Positions 34,413-60,618 of a DNA stretch of 64,000 bases are shown here, in pieces. The DNA is taken from the NCBI GenBank assembly GCA_963665295.1, contig OY762209.1, positions 448,001 through 512,000 of the forward strand, written 5' to 3'. Origin of the DNA: Syntrophorhabdaceae bacterium (lineage in GTDB: Bacteria > Desulfobacterota > Syntrophorhabdia > Syntrophorhabdales > Syntrophorhabdaceae). Position 1 is the stretch's first letter. The number at the start of each line of letters is the position of its first letter. A program made the translations under genes and the position numbers. The notes under the pieces are model-generated. The model did no database searches. It was not told the DNA's origin and worked only from the letters and a program-made list of their open reading frames with translations.

Positions 34413-34416
34413 GTGA

Positions 34417-34464: not shown

Positions 34465-34471
34465 GGCTTCT

Positions 34472-38842: not shown

Positions 38843-38904
38843 TTAAGCTTTAGGCCCTCGCTATGTCCTATCTGATATTCTTTAGATAAAGAAAATAAAA
38901 GAAC

Positions 38905-41784: not shown

Positions 41785-41900
41785 CAAACCGATTATACCA
41801 ATATATCACTATGTTATTGCAAGAAATAAAAGAGGGGCTTCGGGGGATTGTACTTTCTTTCCGCAATCGAAGAAACTCATGCGGACACAATAGAAGGAAA

Positions 41901-42884: not shown

Positions 42885-42930
42885 TACAAATCCTGCCAGA
42901 CGGCCATATTTACCCCCGACATAAAGAACG

Positions 42931-44466
42931 CTATGGATTTACCAGCCAATTATGAATTACTTTGGGATCATCGCTATCTGTTGTCGGATTAGCCGTTTCG
43001 ATCTTAACGATGTCCGAATAAGCGAAAGCTTCACCTATTACTACCGCATATTGCCTTTCAAGGCCCGATATAACCTTGAGTACTTCTGAATCGCTTGAAC
43101 TTAAAGCCTTGCTAATAAAGTCAAGATCACCTTTGTTCGTGATTTTGTGGATAATGTATGAATTGCATTGCGATAGGACCGTTTTTGATAATTCTGACGG
43201 TCTTTGGCTTGAGATAATGAGGCTAATGCCGAACTTTCGGCCTTCCCTCGCCAGCCTCTCTATATAATAGTTTCCAAGTTTATAGTCTTCCTTGTCTTCG
43301 TCGTTGATGTACCTATGAGCTTCTTCGAATACGAGAAGGAGGCTAATCTTTTCCTTGGCGCCCCGTTTCTTTGACGCGTATTGGTAGATTAGTTTGCTGA
43401 ACAGAAAACTGACGATATCAATTTCATTCTTATTGAACTCCGCCTGAATAATGATAATCTCGCAATCCTTAAATTCGCCAAAAATCTTTTCGACCGTGCT
43501 CTCGTTAGTATTTATGACTGAACTGATATTCGTATCATCCAAGATCTTTTGTAGGCGTAAATTCATGGTCGAACACCACTGAAGCCATTGGTTGTACTGA
43601 TTCCCAGCTTTCTTTTTTATCGAAGAGTCTATTTCTGCTTGTAGTTCCTGTAATGAAAAAGTTTTGTTGCCTTTTGCATTGAACGTATCTATAGCATCCC
43701 TTAGGACCGGAGCTTGCACTCCTTGACTAGCCTCTAACAATTTCACATATTCGGAGGTTGTAAGCGTATTGTGAGGTAACCTGAGCTCTTCCTTCGCTAC
43801 TATAGCAACTTTAAATTCCGTGTCCTTGAAAGCTTGGGCATACTCATTGTTCGCGTCAAAGATGATGATTTTGGGCTTTACTACAGTTCGCTTCCCGTCC
43901 TCGTCTATAAGCCTTCTCTTGGTTCCCTGTATTAACGATGCCACAGTACAACTCTTCCCGGTGCCCGTATTGCCAAAAATGCCTAAATGCTTCCCAAAAA
44001 GGATGTCCGGGTTAGCTGTGATTTTTATGGAACTATCAAGGAAACTTGAACCAACCTCGATTACATGCCTTGAACTGATGGACAGAAATTTCTGATAAAT
44101 CTCATTTGGCAACGCAAAGACATCTGATCCGATGATGGGAAAAGTGTTCACGCCATTTTCAAGCTCCTGACTGAAGTCATCAAAGATAGCCGTCAGTTTG
44201 GCTTCCACAAGATATTTGGAGCTTGTTTTAATATAAACGCCTTCTTTTCTAAAGACGTCTTTATCGTATATCTGAGTGATTCTCGCGACAATTCTCTTGT
44301 TATTGGGCAAGTATGAGAAGACATATTTGTGGATAGATACCACAAAGTCCTTGATGTTCCAACAAAGGACAATTTTGCTGAGCTCTTCTTCTTGAATCAC
44401 TTCGAAAAGAATATTGAGCCCTTCAATTCGAACGATTCTTCCTATTTTAAACTGTTCCTGCGCCAT
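42931..44466 (-). CDS. herA: HerA-family ATPase
   Basis: KHL.IFGNTGTGKS, FEEAHRY, REGRKFG, SQRPSEL; N-terminal HAS-barrel-like region. Confidence 0.92.
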   Translation of the reverse strand: MAQEQFKIGRIVRIEGLNILFEVIQEEELSKIVLCWNIKDFVVSIHKYVFSYLPNNKRIVARITQIYDKDVFRKEGVYIKTSSKYLVEAKLTAIFDDFSQELENGVNTFPIIGSDVFALPNEIYQKFLSISSRHVIEVGSSFLDSSIKITANPDILFGKHLGIFGNTGTGKSCTVASLIQGTKRRLIDEDGKRTVVKPKIIIFDANNEYAQAFKDTEFKVAIVAKEELRLPHNTLTTSEYVKLLEASQGVQAPVLRDAIDTFNAKGNKTFSLQELQAEIDSSIKKKAGNQYNQWLQWCSTMNLRLQKILDDTNISSVINTNESTVEKIFGEFKDCEIIIIQAEFNKNEIDIVSFLFSKLIYQYASKKRGAKEKISLLLVFEEAHRYINDEDKEDYKLGNYYIERLAREGRKFGISLIISSQRPSELSKTVLSQCNSYIIHKITNKGDLDFISKALSSSDSEVLKVISGLERQYAVVIGEAFAYSDIVKIETANPTTDSDDPKVIHNWLVNP

Positions 44467-45721
44467 GGCTTGTGCTTAGCTTTTGAAGCTCCTGGAATGT
44501 TCTAAATACTATGTCTTCCTGATTGTTGGCATCCGAATAAGGCATCAGATACTTGACTATGAATTCAAAATCTCCCAATACCTGTCCCTTCAAGATCGTA
44601 ATCCGATTATCTTCTTTGCTTTTTTCCCACAGCTCTTTGAAGTAGTCGCTATTCGCTTTATCCAGCTCATCAAAACAAAACACCACAAGATTAAAATCAG
44701 GGTTTGCCAGAGCATTCGTCAGGATGTCGTTGACGTGCTCATCCAGAAAACTATAGCCAATCACGATCAGGACGGAACGTTGCTTTCCGAGAGCCTCAAC
44801 AAACTGTCTGAATAGCTCACTATAGGGTAGGTCGAGCGAATGCTTTTTCTTGCTCTGTACGGGATAAATAATCGATTCGTTTCTAATTTGATCGTAAGCG
44901 ATCTTATGGCTTGACGCATCAACAAAAAGTTGTCTTTCAGAAATACCATATGGAGGCTTATTCGCATCTTCGTGCCATGATATCGACCCATGCAGCTTGA
45001 ACAGGTTGAGCGTTTTGTTGTATTTCTTGCCCATACCGGTGTTGTTCAAATGCAAATCCAACTGATACGAAGCAGGAGAAAAATGCCTGTCTTGAAATCC
45101 AAAAAATCCATTATTGACATATATACCGAGCTGCTCTGCCGTCTTTTCGATCAACAAATCATAGTTAAGAGTGAAAATATTTACCTTATTCAGTTTGCTA
45201 TCCCGCGAAATCACCTTTTTGAGAAATTGCTTATGGATGGCATTTCGAGAATAGTCGACATTCAACACAAACTCTTCTAAGAATGACTTCTTCAAGTTGA
45301 TTATCAGGGTGTCAACATCCTTTTTTGCGTCTTCGTCTCTAATAATTTCATCAAAATGATACTTAATCTGATACAGGTTATCGAGCGCGCTTTCGGGTCT
45401 CAACGCGGCATAACCATTTATCGTCGTTTGATATTCCTCATGTGTTTTGTCTTTGTTGAATTTAAACGTCGATAGTAACTCCTTGTAGCGTGCTGAACCG
45501 GCTGAATCATTTATTGCCTTAGAGCCAGCACAGTAAGAACAACCATTACTAATCAAGAAACTCAGATTATCACTGGAAAGGAACTTCGGCAAGATCTGGG
45601 TCCGAATGTTCTCAGTCTCTTTAACGATCTCATCACGCTTGGCAGGATTGCCGATGTCTTCTTTTTTCAGCTTTAGTAAGCTAAGCTCTGTATTATATAT
45701 GTATTCCATAATTAAGCCCAT
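44447..45721 (-). CDS. SIR2-like NADase (Sir2-HerA defence system)
   Basis: FLI.NGCS, FTLNYD.L.E, KLHGS..W, GYSF.D.H.N; overlaps herA. Confidence 0.9.
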   Translation of the reverse strand: MGLIMEYIYNTELSLLKLKKEDIGNPAKRDEIVKETENIRTQILPKFLSSDNLSFLISNGCSYCAGSKAINDSAGSARYKELLSTFKFNKDKTHEEYQTTINGYAALRPESALDNLYQIKYHFDEIIRDEDAKKDVDTLIINLKKSFLEEFVLNVDYSRNAIHKQFLKKVISRDSKLNKVNIFTLNYDLLIEKTAEQLGIYVNNGFFGFQDRHFSPASYQLDLHLNNTGMGKKYNKTLNLFKLHGSISWHEDANKPPYGISERQLFVDASSHKIAYDQIRNESIIYPVQSKKKHSLDLPYSELFRQFVEALGKQRSVLIVIGYSFLDEHVNDILTNALANPDFNLVVFCFDELDKANSDYFKELWEKSKEDNRITILKGQVLGDFEFIVKYLMPYSDANNQEDIVFRTFQELQKLSTSHGAGTV

Positions 45722-45895
45722 TCTTATTTTGAATTATGGTTAGTGGTGGATCTTCAGCATTTGATGCCAATGCTAATATCATGCTGATTCCAAATAATTC
45801 CATCTATCTCGAAACTATTGACCCATGCTTCCATTATATACCCCGTCCCATTATTTACCAACAAGAATTCAGTAGAAAAATAAGCAAATCATATG

Positions 45896-45926
45896 AAACA
45901 GCCTCGCGAGTTTACGAGGCTGTTTT
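45896..45926. terminator. Terminator-like hairpin
   Basis: AAACAGCCTCG...CGAGGCTGTTT 11-bp stem. Confidence 0.7.
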
Positions 45927-45934
45927 GCTGAACG

Positions 45935-46648
45935 TCACATTTCAAATCCGGAGATTACCTCCATGCCTGTGCCTTTGGCCATTTCTTTGAGCTTTTCGCC
46001 GAGGGCTTTAATCTGGGCCGTGCTTTCCCAGAAGGCTTCAGCGGCTTTCCGCATGTCTCCAGTTCCGTAATAACCGGCTTCATCATAAATCCTCGAATAG
46101 GCGACGTACCTTTCGGTAAGCTCGATGATTTTGCAGACCAGGATGTGAATCTTCACGCCTGCGTACTGCGTTTTGCAGAAGAATCCCTCATAGCCATAAA
46201 TGAGGTCAGGTGTATGGTCATATTGCTGATAGTCAGCGAGCTCCAAGCTGACCAGGTCGAAGACGAACTCGATGCCCTCACACTGAGGATGGACATTCAG
46301 CCATATCCCCTTAACCTTGGTATCGACGAAGAAATGTGGCTGCTCTCCGTTCCGAAATGCTTTGCGGACCTCTTCCGCATATTTGCTATCCGAAAATTTG
46401 AAGTAACCGTTGCACTGTCTTGAGACCATGGCCGGAAAAAATTCGATGCCTTCCTTCTCTACCTGTTCTTTGGTCGGTATGAATCCGAACCCGTAACCCC
46501 ACGAAGGACAAAGCTCACCTTTTATCTCCTTCTCGACGAGCCCGTGCTCCCAGCCAAGCTTCTCCGCTGTTTGTTGGAGTTCCGTGATAAGACTGTCAAC
46601 CGCTTCGAGACTCTTTGCCTTTCCCCTGTAATGAATTGTTATACCCAT
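45935..46648 (-). CDS. Hypothetical protein (MGITIHYRG...FCKTQYAG...DE.GY family)
   Basis: AGGAGG RBS before ATG 46648; intact 237-aa ORF. Confidence 0.75.
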   Translation of the reverse strand: MGITIHYRGKAKSLEAVDSLITELQQTAEKLGWEHGLVEKEIKGELCPSWGYGFGFIPTKEQVEKEGIEFFPAMVSRQCNGYFKFSDSKYAEEVRKAFRNGEQPHFFVDTKVKGIWLNVHPQCEGIEFVFDLVSLELADYQQYDHTPDLIYGYEGFFCKTQYAGVKIHILVCKIIELTERYVAYSRIYDEAGYYGTGDMRKAAEAFWESTAQIKALGEKLKEMAKGTGMEVISGFEM

Positions 46649-46737
46649 GGCCTTCCTCCTTTTGTTTTTAAGAACTGCTTTCATGGTAGAGGAAGCGGGA
46701 AATGAAAAAAGACGGGCAATTATGCCGTCCGTGACAT
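46596..46737. repeat. 142-bp direct repeat, copy 1
   Basis: Near-identical to 51793-51934 (offset 5197); covers the upstream region, RBS and first 17 codons of the 45935-46648 gene. Confidence 0.93.
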
Positions 46738-46899: not shown

Positions 46900-49800
46900 A
46901 TGGGAGATCAAGCAACCGGAATGAGTGCTTTCATCACCAGAGAGCTGGCAAAAGTTAGGGATGTCTATGTGACGGCTCCAGAGCGCATTATTGGCGACTA
47001 CAACACCGAGAATGAGAAAATCAGCGATTACAAGGGCAGGGAACTGCTAGAGATGTTGCAGAATGCCGATGATGAATCAGATATCGCACAAGACAAAGTT
47101 GCCTATATTGAACTTAAAGACGGTTTCCTAACAATTGCTAACAATGGTCAGCCATTCTCAGAGGATGGGGTTACCTCTCTGATTTATTCTCATCTCAGTC
47201 CAAAATATAAGCGTCAAAACAAGATCGGATCGAAGGGCACAGGCTTCCGTTCTATCCTCAGTTGGGCGAAACAAATTTTCATAAAGAGCTTAGACCTGTC
47301 TATTGAGTTTTCAAAGGAGAATGCAATCTCCTTCTTGAATGGCTTAGTCCTGGATAATCCAAATATTCGTCGATTTTTGGCTGAAAAGTCACCCTTTGCC
47401 GATCCTATAGCTATCCTTTTGACGCCAAAGTGGAAAGATACCGAGACCGGTACGTTCTCTGATTATGACACATACATAGTTGTTGAGCTTAAAGAATCCG
47501 TTGAAGCTGACGTTCAGCGGCAAATTGATGGTCTGGACAAAGAGGTTCTGCTTTTCCTTCACAATCTTCAACGCATCGTATTGAATAGTCCGGGAAGAAG
47601 AGAGGTCATCCGAAAGGAGCCGACGTACGATGGGAAGATAGAGATCAAAGTCGAGTCCATGGATGGGTCTTTCCTGAGCAATAGAACATGGCTTATTAAA
47701 GAGAAGCAAGGAACGTATGAGAATAGAAATTACGAGCTTAAGGTTGCGTACAATGAAGCCTTGGACGACTCAAAAAATATTCTATATTCCTATTTCAAGA
47801 CAGATGTCAGATTTCCCTTTCCTGCCGTCATCCATGGCACTTTTGAACTTACAGGAAATCGTAACCAGTTAACTCGCTCCGAAGTAAACAAATTTCTCTT
47901 AGGGGAACTCGCCCAGCTACTCATCGACGTTGCCCTGCAAATTGCCAATAAAGATACGGAACCGAGCTGGACGCCGTTCCGGCTCCTTTCCTTTACCTCC
48001 GGTTTTGATCAGGCTATAACCGACCTGGGGTTTGAGAATATCCTTTTAGAAAAAATCAAATCGAATAGGCTTTTCCCAACGGTCGTAGGCAACTACATCA
48101 CACATGCTGATAAACCAAAAGTGTACAGGAAGGATTACGCCGCTATTCTGCATTCTAAACCTCAATTTTCTAAGCTGACCATACATTCGGCAGATGAAAA
48201 TGTTTGGCGCCTTCTAAACCGATTGAGTTGGTGGAAGTATGATGCGCAATGGTTCTTCAGCCAACTCTCCGCCATCTCTAAGAGTTTCTCATTAGAGGGC
48301 CGTGCGAAACTTATCGTGTTCATACTCCAGGATTACGAGGAAGCCCTTAAAAGCATTCCCAAGGAAAAATTGCCAACATTATTTATGGACGATTCGGACA
48401 ACGTCATAGGGACTAACATTGAGGTTATCCTTCCTCCCGAGAAAGAAGCTTTCACAATTCCGAATTATGTTCATCTTCGATTTCTTAACGCTGAATTGTT
48501 TGAATATCTCTGCAGAGAACTAAATATAAAAGGCGCTCGTGCCCTAAGAGATAAATTGTCTGCCTTTGATGTTCAGGAATATAGTTTTGAAACGGTACTC
48601 AGGAGAGTTGTTGCTGGCACCAAAGAGCAAATAGAGAAGAAGAAAAGCAAGAAACTTAAGTACATAAGAACATTGGTTCAATTCCTGTGGCAATCATTTT
48701 CCAGGGGTAATGTATCGGACAACATCCCCAAGGACATAGATGTTCCATTGCTCAACCGATTTGAAGCAGTTGTGAGCGCGTCACGCCTGTATCTTGGTAA
48801 GGATTATGGCGATCAGGTCACAGAAAATCTTTTGAGAAACGTGGACAAGAAAATCTTCGTTGCTTCAGCAAAGCTGCTTGGCCTTGGTGATAAGGATGCC
48901 GACACCGTCAAACGATTCCTTTTATGGTTACGTGTCGCACAATATCCAAGGTTCCTGCAAAAGAGGTTCTCTCAGCCACAAGAGGCTGAATACGTGCATT
49001 TTGTCTATAACCAATTGGCCCGGCCCATAATCGTTGGTGACCTATCGTTTGATTCAGCTCAAGATCTCATTGACAGTTCCATCGGACACAGAACCTTTGT
49101 TGAAGTCGAGACAATAGAGTCCTTGGAGCAAATCCTAAATAAAGCCTTGACCGAAGACATATTACTGTGGCTGATCAAAGATCAAGCGATAGCTCGCATC
49201 ATTAGCGATAAGACAGAAAAAAATGCCAGTTCCAACTTTAAGATTGACTTCCACGGAAAGTCAAAGACAAGGTATCTTCGCAGCAACGGTATTTTCCCTT
49301 ATGCCCTCTGGGTCTTGAGAAGCAGGAAGTGGGTTAAGACCAAGAGTGAACGGCGAGTTGAACCAACGATATGTTGTCTTTCCAAAGCCATAGGTCCTGA
49401 CTTCTCTCCAATAATTGAAGCACCAGATGTTGACTATAACAGCAAGAAATTTGTCCAAGCTAAAGTAAGCCGCGAGGATATTGAACATCTTCTTGCGGCG
49501 GTGGGTGTAGCTTCCGACCTCACCAGATTTCCCACAGATACCATTTACTCTATTCTGCTCAATTTACCGGAGCTTGATGCGGCCGGGGACAAGGCAAAGT
49601 TAATATACAAGCAAATCATTGAGAACAGATCCAAGGATCAGATAGATCGCAGCAGCCCCGCTTATAAGCAGTTTCAAAAGGAGGGGAAAGTCTTGGCTAT
49701 ATTGAGCCAACAAAAGAGTTATAAGCCACTGCAAAGCGTTTACTACGTCGAAAATAGAACCTTTTGCCAAGACGTGATTAATCAGTTCCCTGTTCTTGAT

Positions 49801-51726
49801 CTTGACAAAAGGGTGGGCAAAGACAAGGTCAGGTCTGTGTTGGGCGTCAAACCCTTGGAAGAGGTTTCCTTTAGAGTCAAAGGCGAACCGAAGATTCATC
49901 CTCTCGGCATAGAGTTTGGGATAGATTTTGAGGAATTCAAACCCTATGTTTATGCATTAAGAGTGGAGAAGGACCCGAGGCATGCCCAGTTGTCAGCTCT
50001 GAAGCAAAGCAAAGTCACCCTGTGTACCGATGTGGCTGCCTCATATTTTTACAATGGCGAAGAAAGAGGATTTAGTGTGGAGTCTTATGAGCATATCTTT
50101 ATCAGCAAAGCCAACAACGTCTATTTGAAGGTAGAGGCCGATCTCCATAATTCGCTATCCGATTTTAGACGAGACATCCGGTTCTGCGAAACTGTTGCTG
50201 AAATAGTTTCCGGTCTTTTTAAGGTAGAAGAAAACAGAGAGACGATTGGCAATCTTTACTCCAGAGATGAACACCAAAGAAAGGAATTGCTAAGAATGCG
50301 GCTGGATGATGATGAATTGGTCAGTCTGGACCGCGCCTATAAATTACTGGAGATCACCACCGACCCTCAAAAGGATTTCTGGCACTGCGTCTATAGGGCA
50401 GCAAAACCCTCTTCCTCATTCCCAGAATTCACTGACGACGATAAACTCAAGGATCTCCTTCAGCACAACCTCCGCTTGGATGAATCGTTAATCGGCAGGC
50501 TCCTCAGAGACATAGATTATGATGACCTGAATTCGCCAACAAATCTGGCGATCATAATAGAACTTTTTAGAAAGATCGGGATCGATATCGCCGTTTTTAA
50601 CCAGCTTACTACGCGGACGCTGAACTTGACCGAGTATTATCGTGGACTGCTCGACGCTCTCAAGCATCGATACCAGCGACAATATGATAGTCATCTATAT
50701 ACGAAGCTAAAGAAAGAATCAGTAGAGAAGAAAAAGACATTTCTATTGGAGAAGTATAGATACGAAGAATTCGATGGGTTTGTGATTGAGAATTCGGTGG
50801 CATTTGTCCCTGAAGACTATTTCAGGTATTTACTGAAAGTAGAATTTGACTGCGACTTAACGGATATCGAAAACCAGCAAGTGATTGATTTGACCGAACT
50901 TTATAATGCTAACAAAGACAAATTGAAACAAGCATTGTTGGGTAAGCACCCCGTAACAACACATGCATATCTCGAAACGTTCTTGAACGATAAACGTTTC
51001 AGAAGCCTGATCTATTTTGGAGAAGCCGATTATCTAGAAAAAGAGTTTGCGGATAAGTACGGACACCAACCTGAAGCTATGCCTCAACCTCAAAGCAAAA
51101 CCATCGAATTCTATGGAAACAGAATACCATACCAAAGTCTGGAAAAGCTGGGAGCGGCAATTGGCGAGAACTTGCTCAGAAAAGACCTTCAGATTTTAAA
51201 CGTCACGCCTTGCGCAGTCGTATCGCTGGTGCAAAAGTCCGGAAAAGCCGGGACGAGCAGAAGTTCGGGCGCAAGGCCGCGCAGACCTAATGAAGAAACT
51301 GGATTCTTAGGCGAATGTACCGTTTATAGTCTGCTTACCCTCAAATATGGGAAGGAGAAAGTCTTCTGGGTGTCAGAGAATGCACTGAAAGCTGGAATCA
51401 ATGAGAATGGAAGCGAAGGCTTTCATTATGACATGCGGTACGTTGATGGCAGGGGCAAAACTATGTATGTCGAAGTGAAAGCGTCTGTCTCCAATGATCT
51501 GATTTTTCATATTACTCCTGAAGAAGTCGCATTTGCAGAAGAGAAGAAGGATGATTACGAGATATACTTTCTGCCGGGCATCAACAGTAGTGATGCAAAA
51601 GCTCTAAAAATTCCAGGATTATTCAGGTACAAGAAAGGAGAATCTTTTGCAAAGAACTCCAAGTTTTCAGTAGAAAACGATTCGTTTACAATTGAGTTCA
51701 GGCTCGGCGAGAAAGATAAGAAATAG
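46900..51726 (+). CDS. Sacsin-like GHKL ATPase with C-terminal DUF3883/NO VEIN-type nuclease domain, candidate defence gene
   Basis: ELLEMLQNADD, NNG.PF...G, IGSKGTGFRS; C-terminal G.LGE..VY...GFHYD...YVEVKAS...F.IT.EE. Confidence 0.85.
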   Translation: MGDQATGMSAFITRELAKVRDVYVTAPERIIGDYNTENEKISDYKGRELLEMLQNADDESDIAQDKVAYIELKDGFLTIANNGQPFSEDGVTSLIYSHLSPKYKRQNKIGSKGTGFRSILSWAKQIFIKSLDLSIEFSKENAISFLNGLVLDNPNIRRFLAEKSPFADPIAILLTPKWKDTETGTFSDYDTYIVVELKESVEADVQRQIDGLDKEVLLFLHNLQRIVLNSPGRREVIRKEPTYDGKIEIKVESMDGSFLSNRTWLIKEKQGTYENRNYELKVAYNEALDDSKNILYSYFKTDVRFPFPAVIHGTFELTGNRNQLTRSEVNKFLLGELAQLLIDVALQIANKDTEPSWTPFRLLSFTSGFDQAITDLGFENILLEKIKSNRLFPTVVGNYITHADKPKVYRKDYAAILHSKPQFSKLTIHSADENVWRLLNRLSWWKYDAQWFFSQLSAISKSFSLEGRAKLIVFILQDYEEALKSIPKEKLPTLFMDDSDNVIGTNIEVILPPEKEAFTIPNYVHLRFLNAELFEYLCRELNIKGARALRDKLSAFDVQEYSFETVLRRVVAGTKEQIEKKKSKKLKYIRTLVQFLWQSFSRGNVSDNIPKDIDVPLLNRFEAVVSASRLYLGKDYGDQVTENLLRNVDKKIFVASAKLLGLGDKDADTVKRFLLWLRVAQYPRFLQKRFSQPQEAEYVHFVYNQLARPIIVGDLSFDSAQDLIDSSIGHRTFVEVETIESLEQILNKALTEDILLWLIKDQAIARIISDKTEKNASSNFKIDFHGKSKTRYLRSNGIFPYALWVLRSRKWVKTKSERRVEPTICCLSKAIGPDFSPIIEAPDVDYNSKKFVQAKVSREDIEHLLAAVGVASDLTRFPTDTIYSILLNLPELDAAGDKAKLIYKQIIENRSKDQIDRSSPAYKQFQKEGKVLAILSQQKSYKPLQSVYYVENRTFCQDVINQFPVLDLDKRVGKDKVRSVLGVKPLEEVSFRVKGEPKIHPLGIEFGIDFEEFKPYVYALRVEKDPRHAQLSALKQSKVTLCTDVAASYFYNGEERGFSVESYEHIFISKANNVYLKVEADLHNSLSDFRRDIRFCETVAEIVSGLFKVEENRETIGNLYSRDEHQRKELLRMRLDDDELVSLDRAYKLLEITTDPQKDFWHCVYRAAKPSSSFPEFTDDDKLKDLLQHNLRLDESLIGRLLRDIDYDDLNSPTNLAIIIELFRKIGIDIAVFNQLTTRTLNLTEYYRGLLDALKHRYQRQYDSHLYTKLKKESVEKKKTFLLEKYRYEEFDGFVIENSVAFVPEDYFRYLLKVEFDCDLTDIENQQVIDLTELYNANKDKLKQALLGKHPVTTHAYLETFLNDKRFRSLIYFGEADYLEKEFADKYGHQPEAMPQPQSKTIEFYGNRIPYQSLEKLGAAIGENLLRKDLQILNVTPCAVVSLVQKSGKAGTSRSSGARPRRPNEETGFLGECTVYSLLTLKYGKEKVFWVSENALKAGINENGSEGFHYDMRYVDGRGKTMYVEVKASVSNDLIFHITPEEVAFAEEKKDDYEIYFLPGINSSDAKALKIPGLFRYKKGESFAKNSKFSVENDSFTIEFRLGEKDKK

Positions 51727-52322: not shown

Positions 52323-53807
52323 ATGAAGCTTCAGAATATTCAGAATCGAATAAACGAACTAATGGCCATTTTCGTTGCCCAGGTCAAAGGCGCTACCGCT
52401 ATGGGAAGAACCGACATCAATCGGGTATCTGAGACGGTCTTAATACCTCTCCTCTCGGAAGTGTTCGGCTATCAAGCCCTTAAGAATCTCAACTACACTG
52501 AAGAGGAAAACTATCCTGGGATTGATCTCGGAGACGAGCAGGCCCGAGTCGCCTTTCAGGTGACCAGTACAGCCAGCATCGAAAAAGTAAGGGAAACTCT
52601 TATAAAATTCGTACGGTACCGGCTTTACGAAAAGTACGATCAGCTATTCATGTATATTCTGACGGAAAAACAGAAATCTTACTCGGACAAAGGTCTTTCC
52701 GAAATACTTGAAGGAAAATGCTCTTTTGACGTTTCAAGACAGATTCTTGATTATCAAGATATTCTAAGGGCAATAAGCGGTTTCCAAATCGAAAAGGCAC
52801 TTTCTGCATGCAGTATTTTGGAACGAAACCTTAGCTATACGCCTCACCTTCTAGAACATATCACTAATCAAACGTATGAACCGCTTGAGGGTGGAACTGA
52901 GACAGTATATCTCAACCTCGTGGAGGTATCCTTTCCAGATATCTTGTATATCGGAAATCTACCGTCTTTGCCAACCAAGAAACAGGAAAAGAATCGGAGA
53001 TGGAAGGGCCTCAAACCCAAATCCCAGAGAGACGCCGTGCGAGAGAAACTCCTCGAACTCGGACTACGATTCGGCACCGATTGGGAGACTTTCGGGAAAA
53101 GGATAATCACTTTTCATAACCTCTCGAATGACGCAATCCCCTTAGCCCAAGTTGTGCTGCCCGAAAGTGTATCAGCTACTTCAACACTTGATTTCTATTC
53201 AGTTGACGAGGATCACGACAGGGTTTTCAAGTCTTTGTTGCGAAGATGTCTTCAGCAAAAGCTTTATCACCGTGGTATACAATGGCAAAACGATAAGAAC
53301 CTCTTTATCTTTGTAAGCAAAGATGGCGAAGATCATCGGGAAGAACACTGGGTAGGAAGTAAATCGAGTGAACGCGTCGTGTTTGAGAGGACAAGAAAGA
53401 CAAAGAAGCCCGATGAGACGTGGTACTGTAAGCACCTGGCTTTCGCTTCTCGCTTCTATTGCATCGATCACCAATGGTTCATGGCCGTAAAGCCGGATTG
53501 GTTCTTTAGTCGAGACGGCTATAGTGAATCTTTTTATGCTGCGCAAAAAGTCAACTGGCTTAAAAAGAGAGAAAACAATGAGCATCTCTACAATCAATTT
53601 CGGTTTATATGCTATTTTGTGACACACGATGACATTCCTAATCTTTTCGAAAAAGACAGAAGATATCCTTACCTGTCATTTGGCAATGCCGTCGCCTTCC
53701 AATCTTACCCGGAGTTGAACGATGATGTATGGAACCCTCCGAAATCGGATGGCGAGGATGAAGACCTGGATGATGCAGTGTCACAAATGAGTCTGTTTGA
53801 TTTATGA
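52323..53807 (+). CDS. SMEK-domain / APAZ-domain fusion (short pAgo partner)
   Basis: N-terminal DIN..SE....LL...L.NLN....NYPGIDLGD.....FQVT..K...T..KF (SMEK); C-terminal E..Y.NL.E..FP, I.TF..L, F..LL...L, H.AF, W...KPDW.F..DG (APAZ-like); ATGA overlap with pAgo. Confidence 0.8.
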   Translation: MKLQNIQNRINELMAIFVAQVKGATAMGRTDINRVSETVLIPLLSEVFGYQALKNLNYTEEENYPGIDLGDEQARVAFQVTSTASIEKVRETLIKFVRYRLYEKYDQLFMYILTEKQKSYSDKGLSEILEGKCSFDVSRQILDYQDILRAISGFQIEKALSACSILERNLSYTPHLLEHITNQTYEPLEGGTETVYLNLVEVSFPDILYIGNLPSLPTKKQEKNRRWKGLKPKSQRDAVREKLLELGLRFGTDWETFGKRIITFHNLSNDAIPLAQVVLPESVSATSTLDFYSVDEDHDRVFKSLLRRCLQQKLYHRGIQWQNDKNLFIFVSKDGEDHREEHWVGSKSSERVVFERTRKTKKPDETWYCKHLAFASRFYCIDHQWFMAVKPDWFFSRDGYSESFYAAQKVNWLKKRENNEHLYNQFRFICYFVTHDDIPNLFEKDRRYPYLSFGNAVAFQSYPELNDDVWNPPKSDGEDEDLDDAVSQMSLFDL

Positions 53808-55231
53808 AGATAGATACTTTTGATGAACCACTCCTTGAATTTGGCACCGGCACACATTTGTGTCCGAGAGCCGGTATTGCCATGCACTCAGCTTACGACA
53901 CCAGAATGGCGGTTAGAAGAGAACGGATTTTGGTAGGAGCGGTTGGAATAACCGATCATCTGACGAAGTTAATGGAATGGCTCGATAGATGTTCACGGCC
54001 TATACCAGGAAAGATGAACTCTACGAAACCAAATCTCTTTCCAGGTTTCTGTGGATTCAATCGAAATATTGGGTTCAAGGCAGAATTTATAATCAACGAT
54101 GAGATTACTCGCTCACTAAGTCTCTCAGAGGTCAGACGCATTACAAAGACGAAAAATCGCCAGTCATGTGTCAATGACGCCGTGGAATTATATTATCGTC
54201 AGGTAGAGTTTCTAGCTCAAAACAGAGCTGTCGACGTCATAATTTGCATTTTGCCCTCAAAACTGTATGGCAAAATCGTAAGAGAAGGTCTGGAAAAAGC
54301 TGAGATAGATCTCGAAGAAGAACAGTTGGAAGATGATATCTTAGAGGCTAATTTCAGACGCGCCCTTAAGGCCAAGACAATGCATCTGGGTAAGCCTATT
54401 CAGATCATGCGGGACCTGTCCCTGGAGTCTAACCCGAGAACCCAGCAAGATGATGCAACAAAAGCATGGAACTTCTGTACCGCTCTCTATTATAAGGCTA
54501 ATCAAACAGTTCCATGGAAACTTATCACAAATGTAAACAGACCTCCAATCTGTTTCGTCGGCATCGGTTTCTACCGCAGCCGCGACGGCAAGAGTTTGCA
54601 CACGAGTCTTGCTCAAGTCTTCGACGAATTGGGGAATGGAGTAATCCTCAGAGGAACACCGGTTAAGCTGGACAGAGAGGATAGAACGCCACACCTTACT
54701 GAAGAGCAAGCTTCCACTCTTCTTGAAAGAGCGCTTTGTGAATACCAGGCCGCGATGGACAACCTGCCCGGCAGAATAGTCGTTCACAAATCCTCCAACT
54801 TTAATGAGTTGGAATTGCAAGGCTTTCGAAATGCTACTGACCAAGCCCGAGTCAAATCGGTTGATTTTGTCACGGTCATGGAAACAAAGCTAAGACTCTT
54901 GCGCGGAGGGATATACCCGCCTTTTCGAGGGACTTATATCGAGCTGGATGCAACAACACACATTCTTTACACACGAGGATCTGTCAATTACTATCAAACT
55001 TACCCCGGCAAATATGTTCCCCAGCCTCTGGAAATACGGATCGTCGAATCAGATGAGTCGCCGGGACTGATCTGCAGAGAAATTCTTGGGCTAACAAAAA
55101 TGAACTGGAATAATACACAGTTCGATGGCAAATATCCGATTACAATAGAATGCGCAAGAAAGGTCGGTCAAATAATGAAATACGTAGACGAAAACGAGAA
55201 GCCACAAATTCGCTACAGTTTTTATATGTAA
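53804..55231 (+). CDS. ago: Short prokaryotic Argonaute (MID-PIWI, catalytically inactive)
   Basis: EP.LEFG, F...LKA..M....P.Q, Q...T.AWN...ALYYKA...PW, CFVGIGFY, VVHKSS, P.RGT, YPG..VP.PL, LTKMNWN...P.T. Confidence 0.93.
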   Translation: MKIDTFDEPLLEFGTGTHLCPRAGIAMHSAYDTRMAVRRERILVGAVGITDHLTKLMEWLDRCSRPIPGKMNSTKPNLFPGFCGFNRNIGFKAEFIINDEITRSLSLSEVRRITKTKNRQSCVNDAVELYYRQVEFLAQNRAVDVIICILPSKLYGKIVREGLEKAEIDLEEEQLEDDILEANFRRALKAKTMHLGKPIQIMRDLSLESNPRTQQDDATKAWNFCTALYYKANQTVPWKLITNVNRPPICFVGIGFYRSRDGKSLHTSLAQVFDELGNGVILRGTPVKLDREDRTPHLTEEQASTLLERALCEYQAAMDNLPGRIVVHKSSNFNELELQGFRNATDQARVKSVDFVTVMETKLRLLRGGIYPPFRGTYIELDATTHILYTRGSVNYYQTYPGKYVPQPLEIRIVESDESPGLICREILGLTKMNWNNTQFDGKYPITIECARKVGQIMKYVDENEKPQIRYSFYM

Positions 55232-55242: not shown

Positions 55243-55283
55243 ACAAAAAAAGACTCCGCCTGTTTCTTTGAAAACAAACGGAG
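55243..55283 (-). terminator. Hairpin plus U-tract downstream of DGR-type target gene 1
   Basis: Minus strand CTCCGTTTGTTTT-CAAA-GAAACAGGCGGAG-TCTTTTTTT. Confidence 0.65.
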
Positions 55284-55333
55284 CCAGGGTCGAAGGGTCA
55301 AAGCTGTGAGCCAAGGACTCAAAACTCAAAGAG

Positions 55334-55840
55334 CTACTTGCGACGAAGGAACACCCACCGGTTGTCAGCATACCAGAAGCTGCCAGAATAGCCATAACTG
55401 CCGCCGAGACACAGGCCGTCGTCATCGTGTACGACGCTGGACCGCGTCAGGCAGCCATCGGAGTCCATGATGCTGTCCATGGCTATAAAAAGAGCTTCTC
55501 TTTTTGGTTGTTCGGAATATTGGAGACGCAGTTGTGGGCCGACTTCAGCGGGACAGATGTCCCCAATCTTCTTGATGCGCCTATCGATGTTGCGGTAATA
55601 TGCGCCATCTTTAAATCCGAGTTCGGCGGTAGTTGCCGTCATCAGCTCGACTTCTTTTTGTTCCCGGCTCAGGGTGACTTTGCTCAAAATGTCGCCCGCC
55701 CATTCGCCGACTTTGAATCCGTTTTTCTCCAGAGCTTCGCGGAGTTCGGGAATCGATTTGTAGATTCCCAGCTTGATGGTCTTCCAGGTTGGAAGATCGC
55801 AAATGCTTTCATACAGTCCACTTTCGACCTTTCTAATCAT
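55334..55840 (-). CDS. DGR-type variable (C-type-lectin-fold-like) target protein 1
   Basis: CPAEVGPQLRLQY core; NNC/NNT-rich C-terminus ending W....RWVFLRRK; GAGGAGG RBS. Confidence 0.7.
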   Translation of the reverse strand: MIRKVESGLYESICDLPTWKTIKLGIYKSIPELREALEKNGFKVGEWAGDILSKVTLSREQKEVELMTATTAELGFKDGAYYRNIDRRIKKIGDICPAEVGPQLRLQYSEQPKREALFIAMDSIMDSDGCLTRSSVVHDDDGLCLGGSYGYSGSFWYADNRWVFLRRK

Positions 55841-56021
55841 GACAAACCTCCTCTTAATTGAGATATGCCGCTTCATAGCAGCCTTGGAGGAACTTCGAGA
55901 AATTCCCTGAAGGATGCCATGAAATTGTGAGGAGTATGACATAAAGGGGCTTTCCTGAAGCTGAACCCCCTATTGTACACCTAATCCATATTTTGTCAGT
56001 ATCTGAAATCAAAGAGCATTT

Positions 56022-56614: not shown

Positions 56615-57088
56615 CTACTTGCGGCGGCGAAGAAACACCCACCGGTAGTCACCAGTCCAGAAATCGCCCGGGTGACCAAGGCTGCCGTCGAGCCACAGAA
56701 CGCCGTCATCGTGCCCGACGCAGAACCGTCGCAGGCGGCCGCCGGAGCCCGAAATGGGGTTCATAGTAATGAAGTTCCGTTCATCCTTTGGCTGGTCCGG
56801 GTACTGGAGACGAAGTTGCGGCCCGACTTCAGCGGGACAAACATCGAATCCCAGCCCCTTAATACGCTTCTCGATGTCGCAGTAACGGGCTCCATCTTTG
56901 AAGCCGAGTTCGGCGATGGTAGCCGTCACCAGCTCGATTTCTCTTTCTTCGGGGCTCAGACTGACTTTGCTGAGAATGTCGTCCGCCCAGTTGCCGATTT
57001 TGAATCCGCCTTTGCTCAAAGCTTCGCGGAGTTCCGGAATCGACTTGTAGGTGCCGAGCCTAATAGGCTTCCAAGTGTTGAATATCAT
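56615..57088 (-). CDS. DGR-type variable target protein 2 (paralogue of 55334-55840)
   Basis: Shared WK.I.LG.YKSIPELREAL, AELGFKDGA.Y, CPAEVGPQLRLQY; ends RWVFLRRRK. Confidence 0.7.
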   Translation of the reverse strand: MIFNTWKPIRLGTYKSIPELREALSKGGFKIGNWADDILSKVSLSPEEREIELVTATIAELGFKDGARYCDIEKRIKGLGFDVCPAEVGPQLRLQYPDQPKDERNFITMNPISGSGGRLRRFCVGHDDGVLWLDGSLGHPGDFWTGDYRWVFLRRRK

Positions 57089-57576: not shown

Positions 57577-60500
57577 TTAGGGAGCCACCTCCTTCCAATT
57601 CATGTTCCTATATCTGTCTGCATAACAACGAGCTGTTTCCCCTCCGCATACTCCGCTGCAGGTCCAGGTCCAAGACAATTTCGATGTTTGAGGATTGGAG
57701 CTTCCGCCAAAACTTGAACATAGTTCTGAGTCTGGTTTTGTTTTCCATTCTTTGTGCGTAGCATCACCGCATTGTCCGTCAACTGAAGGCTGGAGACCAT
57801 GGCAATCTTGGGTTTGTGGAGAAGTAGGACAAGCAACGCCTCCGTATTGTGGATAAACAGAAACTGTTATGTCTCTGGTTTGTGTTCCAGTTTGATTAGC
57901 ACAAAGAGCAGTACAAGTGTGCCAGTTTGACCAGGTATATTGGCAGTCGATAGGACACTGTCCTACCCAAGTGCTATGAGGAGGGACGCAATTGTTAAGA
58001 TCATACAGGGAAGCCCACCCTGTCTCGGTGCAAGTCGGAAGTCCTCCCCAATACCAGTTTGGCTGTTTAGTTCCGGTACAAGAACTCACTGAATTTGATT
58101 TATATATTCCGTTTCCATTGATGTTGTAGCAATAGTTTCCGGAATCACTGCAATCGAGAGGACATTGACCAACCCGAACGTTTCTTGGTAATTCACAGCT
58201 ATTCAAATCGACTTGGCTTGCCCATCCTGTCTCGGTGCAAGTCGGAAGCCCTCCCCAATACCAGTTTGGCTGTTTGGTTCCAGTGCAAGAACTCACTGAA
58301 TTTGATTTATATACTCCTCCGCTCGCGCAATATTTTCCCGAGTCGCTGCAGTTAAGGGGGCATTGTCCTACCCAGACGTTTCTATTATTAGGCACGACAC
58401 ACCGATTACTATCAATTTGAGTCATCCAGCCGGTTTCGGAACAGCTTGGAAGAGGAGGTGACCAATTTGATTGTTTGATTCCGGTGCAGCTCACACACGC
58501 ATCTGATTTATATACTCCGCTATTAGCGCAATGACTGCCAGAGTCATTGCAGTTCATTGGAGATTTTGTTCCCCAGGTAAGTTTTCCCTCATTTCTGCAA
58601 TTTCCTGTTTGAGAAAATTGCTGGCAAGTCAGATAATCTGAAGCAGGAGGAGACCAAGACCAACTAGAATTCTCTTTGCAAGTTCCTCCACAACCATCGG
58701 ATTCTCCCCCACAAGTATTAGAAGGACAATATGGGGTGCAAGTTACCGTATATGGTATTTTTATTGGCGTATAGGTAAACTTGGTATTTGGACACAAGTT
58801 TTGCGTTCCAAGTCCATAAAAATTTACATAATATGTACCGGGAGTCGTGGAAACATTTCCAGTTGAAGATCCGAATTCGCTCTTTACATTAGCGCATGCT
58901 TGTTGTGAATTCTTTATCGTACATGTTCCATTGACACATTTAGCACAAGCAACGGCGCCGTTATTGCCGTAATTTGACTTGAGACAATCCGGTCTAACGC
59001 TGGCAGGCCTGCAATCTCCCAAACGGCTAGTGTTTATATTACTATAATTAGGAAAATCCGTTAGAACTCCTGCATGAGTATACCCATTGCAGTAACCAGA
59101 CCCTTGTTCTATCCTTCCGTAAACCGTCAAAGAAGCGCCAGGGCTTAGATTAGTGCTGCTAAGATTCACAGTATATGTAGCATTGTCAGCATAAAGCGTT
59201 TCTGCTTTCGCTTCGCTGAAAAACAAGAGAAAGCTTACAGTAGAAACGACAAATAGGACGGCGATACTACTTCGGTTATTTTTCTTCTTTTTAATGATAA
59301 AAACTATCACAACAATCAGAATTAAAGCTGACAATCCAAAAACAAGAAGCGTCGCTGATTTTCCAGAAGATTCATTTAAGCTGTTTTTTTCGTCTGCTAC
59401 AGGACCTCCCCCACCCATAAAATTAAACTCGACTTCATCCAAAACTTTTCCATCGCTATCTTTAATCTGAGCGAAAATGTGAGGATTTTGACAATCAGAA
59501 GTAATCGGAATAGTTAAGTCTTCTATATTTTTCGCCAGATCTAATTCTTTGCTGAAATCATCAGAGCAAGAATTTCCTTTTGAACTTTTGGTTGAAACAC
59601 TGAAAAAAAGCTCGCCAGTTCGAATGCTTTCCCCTCTAGAGATAAAGGAAGAATTAGGCGGTGAATTCCAATAAAGAAACACCTTGGCATTTTCTCCTTT
59701 TTGATAATAATTTTTGTCTACTCTTAGATTTTTGATAGTAACACTTTTCCCTTTTGTAATATACTGAAACGATAACTCGTTAGAAACCTTCCGAACCGAA
59801 TTACTTTTATCCAAGAATGACAACTTTATTCCATATACTTGAGGAATAGAAATGTTCTTAATAACAAAGCTTTTTTCATTCTCTCCCGGATTCAAGATAA
59901 TGGCGTCTTGCTTTTCGTTTTCTATTATCTTTCCAAAAGTGGAATATAGATAGGTTTCAAAATATGGCACTACAGATATGGAATTCTTGAAGTTATTTTT
60001 AATTCTGCACTCCAGGGACAGTTCTTCTTCTTGGCTGACGCTTATTGCATAGCCCAAGGGATATTTGTTTCCATCACCTTCCACCAGAAAATTGCAGGCA
60101 TCAGGAGCAATTTCGACATATTCTCCATTTCCGGTGAGATGAATCTCTCCTGCCATATTCATTCCAAGAGACAAACCTTTGTCGTTTTCGGAAATTATCC
60201 ATACTTGATAGTTCCCATTCAAATAATCCGGAATTGTGTAGGCTATTTCTTTGTGAATTGTTTCATTTTGTCCCAGATTTACAGTTTCTTCATAGACTTC
60301 TTCATCAACAATGCCGGAACTTTCTTTTTCAACAAGCTGGACGGCATATTTAACATTTGGCTGAATTTCTTCCCTGTTGGACAAGTCAAAAGACAGTTTC
60401 ATCTCATTGCCGTTTTGAGAGACTATTTTTGCATCGTAGATATTGACAGTAGCCACGATAACAGCTTCACTTTTTTCTGCTTGTTTTGAATCAGCATTAT

Positions 60501-60618
60501 CAAATAAAATGGGGTTTTCTTCCTGCGCTTTGGCCTCAAATCCTGAGAGAAACAGGAAAAGTGAGGCAGAGACGAAGAATGTCGTCTTTAAAAAATGCGC
60601 ACGGTTTCGGTTTTTCAT
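57577..60618 (-). CDS. Large secreted/membrane surface protein with Cys-rich repeats and a thrombospondin type-1-like module
   Basis: Signal peptide, two internal hydrophobic segments, three ~67-aa Cys/Trp repeats, WS.W..C...C...GTQTR....P..GG..CP, C-terminal NWKEVAP. Confidence 0.8.
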   Translation of the reverse strand: MKNRNRAHFLKTTFFVSASLFLFLSGFEAKAQEENPILFDNADSKQAEKSEAVIVATVNIYDAKIVSQNGNEMKLSFDLSNREEIQPNVKYAVQLVEKESSGIVDEEVYEETVNLGQNETIHKEIAYTIPDYLNGNYQVWIISENDKGLSLGMNMAGEIHLTGNGEYVEIAPDACNFLVEGDGNKYPLGYAISVSQEEELSLECRIKNNFKNSISVVPYFETYLYSTFGKIIENEKQDAIILNPGENEKSFVIKNISIPQVYGIKLSFLDKSNSVRKVSNELSFQYITKGKSVTIKNLRVDKNYYQKGENAKVFLYWNSPPNSSFISRGESIRTGELFFSVSTKSSKGNSCSDDFSKELDLAKNIEDLTIPITSDCQNPHIFAQIKDSDGKVLDEVEFNFMGGGGPVADEKNSLNESSGKSATLLVFGLSALILIVVIVFIIKKKKNNRSSIAVLFVVSTVSFLLFFSEAKAETLYADNATYTVNLSSTNLSPGASLTVYGRIEQGSGYCNGYTHAGVLTDFPNYSNINTSRLGDCRPASVRPDCLKSNYGNNGAVACAKCVNGTCTIKNSQQACANVKSEFGSSTGNVSTTPGTYYVNFYGLGTQNLCPNTKFTYTPIKIPYTVTCTPYCPSNTCGGESDGCGGTCKENSSWSWSPPASDYLTCQQFSQTGNCRNEGKLTWGTKSPMNCNDSGSHCANSGVYKSDACVSCTGIKQSNWSPPLPSCSETGWMTQIDSNRCVVPNNRNVWVGQCPLNCSDSGKYCASGGVYKSNSVSSCTGTKQPNWYWGGLPTCTETGWASQVDLNSCELPRNVRVGQCPLDCSDSGNYCYNINGNGIYKSNSVSSCTGTKQPNWYWGGLPTCTETGWASLYDLNNCVPPHSTWVGQCPIDCQYTWSNWHTCTALCANQTGTQTRDITVSVYPQYGGVACPTSPQTQDCHGLQPSVDGQCGDATHKEWKTKPDSELCSSFGGSSNPQTSKLSWTWTCSGVCGGETARCYADRYRNMNWKEVAP
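57950..58560 (-). repeat. Three ~200-nt tandem intragenic repeats
   Basis: C.DSG..C...G.YKS....SCTG.KQ.NW...LP.C.ETGW...D.N.C......VGQCP repeated three times. Confidence 0.85.

Follow-up and report, generated by a model that had tools for sequence, protein, structure and literature searches.

An intact SMEK-APAZ and short Argonaute gene pair in a defence island of a Syntrophorhabdaceae bacterium

The stretch of DNA analysed here (64,000 nucleotides; hereafter the window) contains an intact two-gene module, in which a SMEK-APAZ protein is paired with a short prokaryotic Argonaute (pAgo), and the profile matches of both proteins are far above chance. The pair is probably a horizontally acquired SMEK/Mrr-like-APAZ short-pAgo defence module of clade S2B, which would degrade DNA collaterally upon sensing its target. 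The two genes are:

52323..53807, plus strand: SMEK-APAZ gene (ORF1), 494 aa, encoding the effector-adaptor protein that partners the short pAgo (open reading frame and PADLOC)
53804..55231, plus strand: short pAgo gene (ORF2), 475 aa, MID-PIWI, with a start codon that overlaps its partner's stop codon (ATGA; open reading frame and PADLOC)

The coordinates and lengths of both frames are exactly those of the original prediction, and the strings quoted there are present in the translations (NLN...NYPGIDLGD...FQVT in ORF1; CFVGIGFY and VVHKSS in ORF2). The claimed ATGA translational coupling is also borne out, since direct reading of the sequence places the ATG at 53804-53806 and the TGA at 53805-53807, an overlap at 53804-53807. 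ORF1 matches the PADLOC model Aga_REase-PNTD1-PNTD2 over its full length (residues 1-481, E 2.1e-151), and ORF2 matches pAgo_I over residues 1-475 (E 5.4e-180; the profile has 455 positions). An alternative start for ORF1 at M14 has been used by a gene caller elsewhere (P0001, 481 aa); alignments show that the N-terminus from M1 is kept in homologues, which makes 52323 the likelier start.

ORF1 is divided as follows:

52323..52838, plus strand: SMEK (Mrr-like PD-(D/E)xK) nuclease domain, residues 1-172 (Pfam, PDB, AF2 model and fold search)
52839..52889, plus strand: flexible linker joining the nuclease to APAZ, about residues 173-189 (pLDDT below 50 for 173-189 in the full-length model)
52890..53732, plus strand: APAZ domain, residues about 190-470 (Foldseek and profile matches)
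53733..53804, plus strand: C-terminal tail, disordered and acidic, spanning residues 471-494, ...SDGEDEDLDDAVSQMSLFDL (pLDDT below 50 for 470-472 and 477-494)

Residues 9-151 of ORF1 correspond to Pfam PF21941, SMEK_N (E 2.1e-44), the only family returned at E ≤ 0.1; DUF4365, Mrr, TIR and SIR2 were all absent at that threshold, and the N-terminal domain is therefore SMEK, as had been proposed, rather than DUF4365, Mrr or TIR. The NCBIfam model NF033859 also matches (E 3.1e-26). Homologues of ORF1 numbered 399 at E ≤ 0.001, and PF21941 was found in all 120 of 120 among the matches listed. The name SMEK itself does not occur in the main text of Kaur et al. 2020 (PMC7159879) or Kaur et al. 2021 (PMC8195603). 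Residues 7-165 match the 'Mrr domain' of Kordia in PDB entry 26bh (chain D); E is 9.4e-30 when the single sequence is used and 1.9e-42 with the profile, and in the alignment both domains display the motifs E, P-x-IDL-x-D, QxT and K. Across 30 SMEK domains, the window's included, residues E37, D68, D71, Q79, T81, K88, K116 and D143 are invariant.

The AF2 model of the SMEK domain (pLDDT 92.2) has an alpha-beta-beta-beta-alpha-beta core: helix 2 carries E37, D68 opens a strand, Q79-T81 lie in the strand after that, and K88 is on the helix that comes next. As modelled, this arrangement is the canonical PD-(D/E)xK layout, except that the lysine of (D/E)xK is replaced by threonine T81; K88 is proposed as its substitute. 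The best non-helical VIA-align matches were LlaBIII (Z 8.3), FokI (7.2), AF1548 (7.1), AspBHI (6.2) and Avs4 (6.0); these top matches are restriction-type nucleases mixed with helical-bundle noise, and Z values of 6-8.3 are 'middling' by the tool's own note. When the SMEK model alone was compared with the PDB by Foldseek, nothing came up at E ≤ 0.001, the best match being EcoO109I at 0.016. The predicted fold and the E...D...QxT...K signature support the earlier suggestion of a restriction-endonuclease-like domain with a D...QxT site. A prediction of a two-copy SMEK complex, made with an alignment, gave a score of 0.01 and a mark of 0.42, and speaks neither way on self-association.

APAZ is the equivalent of the N-L1-L2 region of long pAgos. 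The model of this part of ORF1 superimposes on SPARDA chains 9vx1_E (TMt 0.88, rmsd 2.9 Å) and 9qcc_I (TMt 0.84, rmsd 3.4 Å), with Foldseek E-values of 1e-17 to 1e-19 for SPARDA, 1.7e-13 for SPARHA (9om4_A) and about 1e-10 for SPARTA. A C-terminal APAZ fold, which had been predicted from motifs, is thus present at TM 0.84-0.88 to solved SPARDA complexes. At the level of profiles, the family matches the DREN-APAZ chain 9jsb_D over positions 230-476 (E 2.3e-26) and HNH-APAZ chains at E 7.9e-10. The likeness to named systems is confined to this part of the protein: in a PDB sequence search SPARDA chains align only to residues 234-476, and the SIR2-APAZ models of PADLOC cover only residues 257-419. 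The C-terminal tail is acidic and varies among homologues in the alignment; by analogy with the SPARDA model (bioRxiv 10.1101/2023.06.08.544223) it may occupy a cleft.

The short pAgo comprises two regions:

53804..54508, plus strand: MID region, approximately residues 1-235 (boundary approximate), with conserved R185, R186, K189, Q200 and K231
54509..55228, plus strand: PIWI region, residues 236-475 (approximate), lacking catalytic acids at G255 (VGIGF) and S330 (HKSS)

Its size (475 aa, where short pAgos have about 450-500) and domains (MID and PIWI, with neither N nor PAZ) are those of a short pAgo, and from end to end it can be aligned with SPARDA Ago (9qbp_B, residues 2-462 to 4-471 of 484, E 5e-87). 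Further PDB matches are the SPARDA chains 9qbl_B and 9jsb_A (the SPARDA range being 5e-87 to 3e-78) and SPARHA 9om4_B (1.5e-65); SPARTA (4.8e-33) and SPARSA (2e-25) are more distant, and the Aquifex Argonaute 1yvu_A matches residues 236-459. In these pairwise matches the protein lies closest to the solved S2B systems (SPARDA 5e-87 and SPARHA 1.5e-65, against 5e-33 for SPARTA); the pAgo tree, a quick tree with SH-aLRT support, holds only sequences of the protein's own family. In a comparison of 41 pAgos of that family, conservation of the MID residues R185, R186, K189, Q200 and K231 reaches 97% or more. Judged from sequence, R185, K189, Q200 and K231 may form a pocket of the 'RK' type for the guide's 5'-end, and the SPARDA pAgo has an RK motif according to the available text of bioRxiv 10.1101/2023.06.08.544223.

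In the PIWI region, G253, F256, H328 and S331 are conserved among the same 41 sequences, and an acidic residue occupies the columns of G255 and S330 in none of them. We take these to be the positions of the two Asp motifs (GxDV and RDG) of active PIWI domains. The view that this is a MID-PIWI pAgo lacking the catalytic (DEDX) tetrad stands, with the tetrad columns assigned from general PIWI motifs and from homology to the aligned SPARDA Agos, which carry the same motifs (lgigfyr and vvvlktsrf). The PIWI domain of SPARDA Ago is itself reported to be without the tetrad in the available text of bioRxiv 10.1101/2023.06.08.544223.

The type of system is already known, and the original prediction's statement that this combination had no experimental characterisation has to be withdrawn. 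PADLOC has full-length HMMs for both proteins, and the sections available of PMC10810196, like section 5 of bioRxiv 10.1101/2023.06.08.544223, name the pairing of SMEK/Mrr-like-APAZ with a short pAgo as a branch of clade S2B; the available text of the preprint counts 175 SMEK proteins among APAZ proteins. A pair from Kordia jejudonensis, KjAgo/Mrr-APAZ ('SPARMA'), was tested in 2020 and described as a heterodimeric guide-dependent nuclease in vitro (Kim, Jung and Lim 2020, as cited in the available parts of PMC10810196 and PMC12205087). The two secondary accounts differ in their wording: what could be seen of PMC10810196 speaks of 'RNA-guided target DNA cleavage', and the corresponding part of PMC12205087 of a heterodimer with guide RNA against DNA and 'weak collateral nuclease activity'. 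Lu et al., in the portion available, state that the exact function of the Kordia system remained unknown. According to section 17 of bioRxiv 10.1101/2025.04.08.647717, AlphaFold dimer models of the Kordia system resemble the filament interfaces of SPARDA, and, by their abstracts, filaments induced by the target turn on the nucleases of SPARDA and SPARHA. The literature search returned no article devoted to SMEK-type systems and none for PDB 26bh; in the sources as far as they were accessible it found in vitro work on one species only, and neither in vivo defence by a SMEK-type system nor an activation structure. Since the catalogues already contain this type, and its Kordia jejudonensis example has been partly tested, the window pair is an ordinary addition to it.

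By analogy with these systems, the role of guide-dependent defence module given in the original prediction is upheld, and for the window pair we infer a heterodimer, the types of guide and target, collateral cleavage and oligomerisation. In the proposed mechanism, the APAZ part would dock on the 475-aa MID-PIWI pAgo to form a heterodimer resembling a long Argonaute without PAZ. The pAgo, being unable to cut, would load a short guide, most likely RNA, and sense complementary invader DNA. Target binding would then release or assemble the N-terminal SMEK nuclease (E37, D68, Q79-x-T81 and K88), which, following oligomerisation of the complexes, would degrade DNA, most likely indiscriminately, and so stop plasmids or phages at the cell's expense. 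The main alternative, and an unlikely one, is that SMEK cleaves nothing but the guide-recognised DNA, replacing the lost PIWI slicer, with neither collateral degradation nor abortive infection. The same idea was proposed by Ryazansky et al. However, all nuclease-type S2B systems studied in depth (SPARDA and SPARHA) are described, in the parts of the sources available, as cleaving collaterally once activated, and the later of the two accounts of Kordia, PMC12205087, calls that activity collateral in its available text. Moreover, in the model, as in that of SPARDA, a disordered linker tethers the nuclease outside the APAZ core, which is more in keeping with collateral degradation.

The pair lies within a defence island that also holds AbiE, a type III R-M system, a DrmD-like helicase, SIR2-HerA and TmtA, and a tyrosine integrase adjoins the island. 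It was found in one of 31 related genomes, the window's own, and the nearest database relative of the SMEK-APAZ protein, among the matches listed, is only 52% identical. Both observations would suit a decaying or silent relic, carried in the island and no longer working. This is very improbable: both frames are open and of full length in comparison with homologues and HMMs, the translational coupling is preserved, and the columns invariant in 21 SMEK-APAZ proteins and in 30 SMEK domains are kept, although by definition so, the window protein being included in both alignments. One further element lies between the pAgo stop and the convergent gene downstream:

55252..55285, no strand assigned: 15-bp stem-loop, terminator-like (consensus scan)

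The scan places this stem-loop on the minus strand with a T-run, as a pattern match only, and terminator-like sites are not enriched (3 found against 3.7 expected from shuffles).

Pairing was surveyed in the best 80 of 397 relatives, 39 of which encode a full-length SMEK-APAZ protein. A pAgo gene lies directly 3' on the same strand, 0-180 nt away, in 38 of these 39 loci, and in the 39th the contig ends 5 nt after the gene. The window pair has the same arrangement. Only SMEK-APAZ and pAgo are common to the 40 pAgo loci and the window. A conserved third gene was considered and rejected, as no flanking gene is common to more than two of these loci; clusters found in 3-6 loci are, judged by their coordinates, short antisense ORFs within the two genes. 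In 34 loci with SMEK-STAND-type genes (from the same best 80 of 397), a pAgo was found beside none. The notion that the pair and the upstream TmtA (Tiamat-type, 1608 aa, PADLOC PDLC03964, E 0) act as one machine, for which speak the shared strand and TmtA's end at 51726, with 596 nt separating it from the SMEK-APAZ start, is contradicted by the survey (a tblastn match in none of the best 80 of 397 related loci, and the lack of a shared flanking gene) and by Koopal et al., according to whom no protein but the APAZ protein shows a specific association with short pAgos, and it can be set aside as extremely improbable.

The related loci also include cyanobacterial EAD8-APAZ/pAgo operons with an adjacent EAD8-trypsin (protease) gene. 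Such a layout points to recruitment of a protease effector in trans by a short Argonaute and, if confirmed, would matter more than the window pair itself.

The window pair adds one intact, diverged (52% identity) member to a catalogued family; among the nuclease branches of clade S2B, its type has been studied least. With in vitro data for one species only, and in vivo defence not found in the sources as far as available, an intact pair in a complete 5.5-Mb genome is a usable test subject rather than a discovery. It is conceivable, though we hold this only tentatively, that SMEK is a portable 'warhead' activated by induced oligomerisation, whichever sensor carries it. The window's SMEK is 48-61% identical to 11 SMEK-only domains, compared with 35-58% to 18 SMEK-APAZ proteins, and is thus as similar to STAND-fused SMEK as to that of pAgo partners; moreover, within the same pAgo family a cyanobacterial subclade carries an EAD8 adaptor in place of SMEK, next to an EAD8-protease gene. 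Were SMEK portable, the pair, being intact, would lend itself well to a first in vivo view of a QxT-type Mrr-like switch, in which a nuclease with a relocated lysine is activated by Argonaute filament assembly, and the same switch might operate in Avs-like proteins.

In comparison with known systems, the nearest counterpart is the Kordia 'SPARMA' pair, which has the same order of SMEK/Mrr-like nuclease, APAZ and then short MID-PIWI pAgo. Its nuclease domain is clearly homologous to that of the window (E 9.4e-30), the window pair being a different, diverged member. SPARDA (DREN/DUF4365-APAZ; Nba, Xau, Eae and Tmu) provides the closest solved structures for the pAgo and the APAZ part, and shares with the window pair the two-gene operon, a PD-(D/E)xK nuclease effector and, probably, the S2B clade, in which SMEK effectors are placed by the available text of bioRxiv 10.1101/2023.06.08.544223. 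By analogy, the window pair would probably follow a SPARDA-like logic of RNA guide, DNA target, collateral nuclease and filament. The SPARDA effector is DREN, however, whereas ORF1 has no DUF4365 at E ≤ 0.1, and the Mrr-like (SMEK) and DREN topologies differ according to the same preprint, as far as available. SPARHA (HNH-APAZ with a short pAgo) is an S2B relative whose nuclease effector is likewise activated by target-induced filaments, but that nuclease is HNH, in contrast to the PD-(D/E)xK nuclease of the window. SPARTA and SPARSA (TIR- or SIR2-APAZ) share the sensor principle and the APAZ-pAgo heterodimer, but belong to more distant clades and have NADase effectors, whereas ORF1 has neither TIR nor SIR2. 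Finally, the SMEK-STAND NTPase proteins (Avs/NLR-like) carry the same domain at their N-terminus; of the seven examined, five have NACHT, AAA_16 or NPHP3_N, one has WD40 repeats and one has SMEK only. These proteins sense by means of a STAND NTPase that has TPR repeats, in place of the APAZ and pAgo that accompany SMEK in the window.

The module consists of two overlapping reading frames, ORF1 encoding the SMEK-APAZ partner protein and ORF2 the short prokaryotic Argonaute (pAgo):

52323..53807, + strand, ORF1, SMEK-APAZ, ORF of 494 aa
53804..55231, + strand, ORF2, short pAgo, ORF of 475 aa

The stop codon of ORF1 (TGA) and the start codon of ORF2 (ATG) share the ATGA at 53804-53807. The coordinates, lengths and overlap agree with the original prediction, and every peptide string quoted there was found in the translations. 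The database entry identical to ORF1 (P0001) places its start at M14, giving 481 aa; however, residues 1-13 are kept in homologues, as judged from the alignments, and M1 is therefore the likelier start.

SMEK_N (PF21941) matches ORF1 residues 9-151 (E 2.1e-44, Pfam), in agreement with the NCBIfam match to NF033859 (E 3.1e-26). The claimed SMEK N-terminus is thus upheld: DUF4365, Mrr and TIR were looked for and not returned at E ≤ 0.1, and these alternatives are unsupported because SMEK_N is the sole Pfam family at that threshold. The PADLOC model 'Aga_REase-PNTD1-PNTD2', which represents the full-length architecture of ORF1, matches residues 1-481 (E 2.1e-151). The whole protein was modelled with AlphaFold2 (pLDDT 79.9, low at residues 173-189, 218-230 and the last ~25) and compared with the PDB. 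In this model the last two thirds of the protein fit onto APAZ chains from solved SPARDA (DREN/DUF4365-APAZ) complexes with E 1e-17 to 1e-19 (9vx1_E, TMt 0.88, rmsd 2.9 Å; 9qcc_I, TMt 0.84, rmsd 3.4 Å), which bears out the predicted APAZ C-terminus. Matches to SPARHA (HNH-APAZ; 1.7e-13) and SPARTA (TIR-APAZ; about 1e-10) were weaker.

An alignment of 30 SMEK domains (the window's own, 18 belonging to pAgo partners and 11 to other proteins) shows E37, N63, P65, I67, D68, L69, D71, Q79, T81, K88, K116 and D143 to be invariant throughout. The domain model (pLDDT 92.2) has E37 on its second helix; D68 begins a strand, the strand after it carries Q79-x-T81, and K88 sits on the helix that comes next. 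PD-(D/E)xK sites canonically have this arrangement; here Q79 is a Gln as in Mrr-type enzymes, and T81 a Thr at the usual place of Lys. Foldseek returned no match for the isolated domain at E ≤ 0.001. An exhaustive VIA search ranked restriction-type nucleases top among the non-helical matches, led by the LlaBIII N-terminal nuclease (Z 8.3, 3.6 Å, 125 residues) and followed by FokI (7.2), AF1548 (7.1), BspD6I, NucC, MspJI, AspBHI (6.2) and the Avs4 N-terminus (6.0). The tool's own note classes such Z values as middling, and the matches therefore favour a restriction-type nuclease fold, short of proof. The decisive link is a sequence match to PDB 26bh ('the Mrr domain from Kordia jejudonensis Mrr-APAZ pAgo'), which aligns with ORF1 residues 7-165 (E 9.4e-30) and with the family profile at E 1.9e-42 and has the same motifs.

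ORF2 had no Pfam match, and PADLOC pAgo_I matches it end to end (E 5.4e-180). Among PDB entries, the SPARDA Argonaute 9qbp_B aligns over ORF2 residues 2-462 (4-471 of its 484; E 5e-87), with 9qbl_B and 9jsb_A also matching; the SPARHA Argonaute 9om4_B gave 1.5e-65 and SPARTA a weaker 4.8e-33. C250-x-x-G253-x-x-F256 and H328-x-x-S331 are conserved among 41 pAgo family members, and G255 and S330 presumably occupy the places of the two aspartates in active PIWI domains (GxDV and RDG motifs). The aligned SPARDA Argonautes carry the same residues at these motifs and are reported to lack the catalytic tetrad (bioRxiv 10.1101/2023.06.08.544223), as do all short pAgos (Koopal et al.). The predicted loss of the tetrad is thereby borne out, and on its sequence ORF2 would be an inactive sensor. 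MID residues R185, R186, K189, Q200 and K231 are at least 97% conserved (41 sequences), consistent with a putative 'RK' 5'-end pocket of the kind described for SPARDA in the same preprint.

SMEK-APAZ relatives number 399 proteins at E ≤ 0.001, with PF21941 in 120/120 among the matches listed; 397 relatives are in species-representative genomes. Within the best 80 of these 397 loci, 39 hold a full-length SMEK-APAZ gene. The survey of SMEK-APAZ/pAgo operons suggested by the original prediction found the pAgo downstream on the same strand, at 0-180 nt, in 38 of the 39 (51-67% identical to ORF2); in the remaining locus the contig stops 5 nt past the gene. All ORFs of at least 80 aa were clustered from the window and 40 loci with a near-complete pAgo, leaving out L013, L062 and L063, in which the pAgo is cut. 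The pairing stands alone: only the two genes are common to all 41, and flanking genes recur in two of the clustered loci at most. A quick maximum-likelihood tree built on 41 pAgos pairs the window's with a sister sequence from the Anaerolineales, at 68% identity and with an SH-aLRT of 97.

The pair stands at the end of a defence island:

31532-32473, tyrosine integrase, beside the island
32892-34372, - strand, AbiEi/AbiEii
34472-38842, - strand, type III Res and Mod (restriction and methylase)
38905-41787, - strand, DrmD-like SNF2 helicase
41901-42884 and 45935-46684, - strand, two ORFs without assignment, within the island stretch 31532-46684
42931-45721, - strand, HerA and SIR2
46900-51726, + strand, TmtA (Tiamat-type), 1608 aa, PADLOC PDLC03964 (E 0), directly upstream of the pair

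TmtA has a sacsin-like ATP-binding N-terminus and NOV_C, and was found in none of the best 80 related loci. Across 31 related genomes the SMEK-APAZ gene occurs only in the window's own (0/30 others, of which 27 have a completeness of 92% or more), which is consistent with horizontal acquisition of the pair. Immediately 3' of the pAgo, and oriented against it, lie two paralogous genes (55334-55942 and 56615-57088, both -; products 66% identical over 152 aa, E 1e-70), neither matched by Pfam, NCBIfam or PADLOC. Beyond them, 57577-60618 (-) encodes a Cys-rich repeat protein of 1013 aa, predicted to have a signal or membrane segment. It matches spondin-like TSP1 below threshold (PF19028, E 7.9e-8; score 32.9 bits, cut-off 41), which is unusual for a bacterium.

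Other effector or adaptor domains occur on the same scaffold. In four cyanobacterial loci Pfam EAD8, which is an adaptor domain, takes the place of SMEK at the N-terminus of the APAZ protein (E between 5.9e-27 and 9.7e-5; three of these matches lie at or close to the Pfam cut-off):

L013:2519-4918, EAD8-APAZ locus
L014:3632-8941, EAD8-APAZ locus, with an EAD8-NB-ARC gene too
L016:2521-6330, EAD8-APAZ locus
L015:109-2834, EAD8-APAZ locus

Their pAgos are 54-62% identical to the window's, and those of L014-L016 fall within a six-sequence clade (support 99) that also holds three SMEK-linked pAgos, two from named cyanobacteria. A neighbouring gene that joins EAD8 to a trypsin-like peptidase is present in all three loci with flanking DNA, which suggests a short Argonaute recruiting a protease effector in trans; a literature search found no paper joining 'Argonaute' with 'EAD8' or 'effector-associated domain'. 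In a Bacteroidota MAG (L067:3542-6329) the protein encoded ahead of the pAgo (54% identity with the window's) is DUF4062-APAZ (PF13271, E 4.3e-23), a further swap of effector or adaptor. Thirty-four loci within L019-L075 (for example L022:4001-8533 and L028:4001-8503) match in SMEK only, which there forms the N-terminus of large STAND NTPases that also contain TPR or WD40 repeats (NACHT/AAA_16/NPHP3_N in five of seven examined). Their SMEK domains are 48-61% identical to the window's, as close as those of pAgo partners. These proteins are candidates for Avs/NLR-like single-protein defence with the same nuclease warhead.

By analogy with relatives, ORF1 and ORF2 would form a heterodimer in which an RNA guide recognises a DNA target, and target binding would switch on the tethered nuclease. 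The most likely route of activation would be oligomerisation, accompanied by collateral degradation of DNA and by abortive infection. The chief alternative is that the nuclease cuts the recognised target only, the older 'compensation' idea (Ryazansky et al.; PMC10810196). The Kordia pair (KjAgo and KjMrr-APAZ) is described as a heterodimer that targets DNA by means of guide RNA and has weak collateral nuclease activity (PMC12205087), and as a 'SPARMA' that is monomeric in its apo form, its modelled dimers resembling SPARDA filament interfaces (bioRxiv 10.1101/2025.04.08.647717).

The anatomy originally proposed (SMEK, APAZ and a tetrad-less pAgo) stands, whereas its novelty does not: PADLOC has models for both proteins, published classifications place SMEK/Mrr-like-APAZ systems within short-pAgo clade S2B (PMC10810196; bioRxiv 10.1101/2023.06.08.544223), and according to Lu et al. 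(PMC10810196) a SMEK-APAZ/pAgo heterodimer had been tested already. The papers that cite it credit the original work on the Kordia pair to Kim, Jung and Lim 2020. The window's pair is an intact, diverged example of a known, catalogued kind. Its SMEK domain shares motifs with the Mrr domain of the Kordia Mrr-APAZ pAgo system (26bh), and its Argonaute and APAZ parts are matched better by those of SPARDA than by those of SPARHA or SPARTA.
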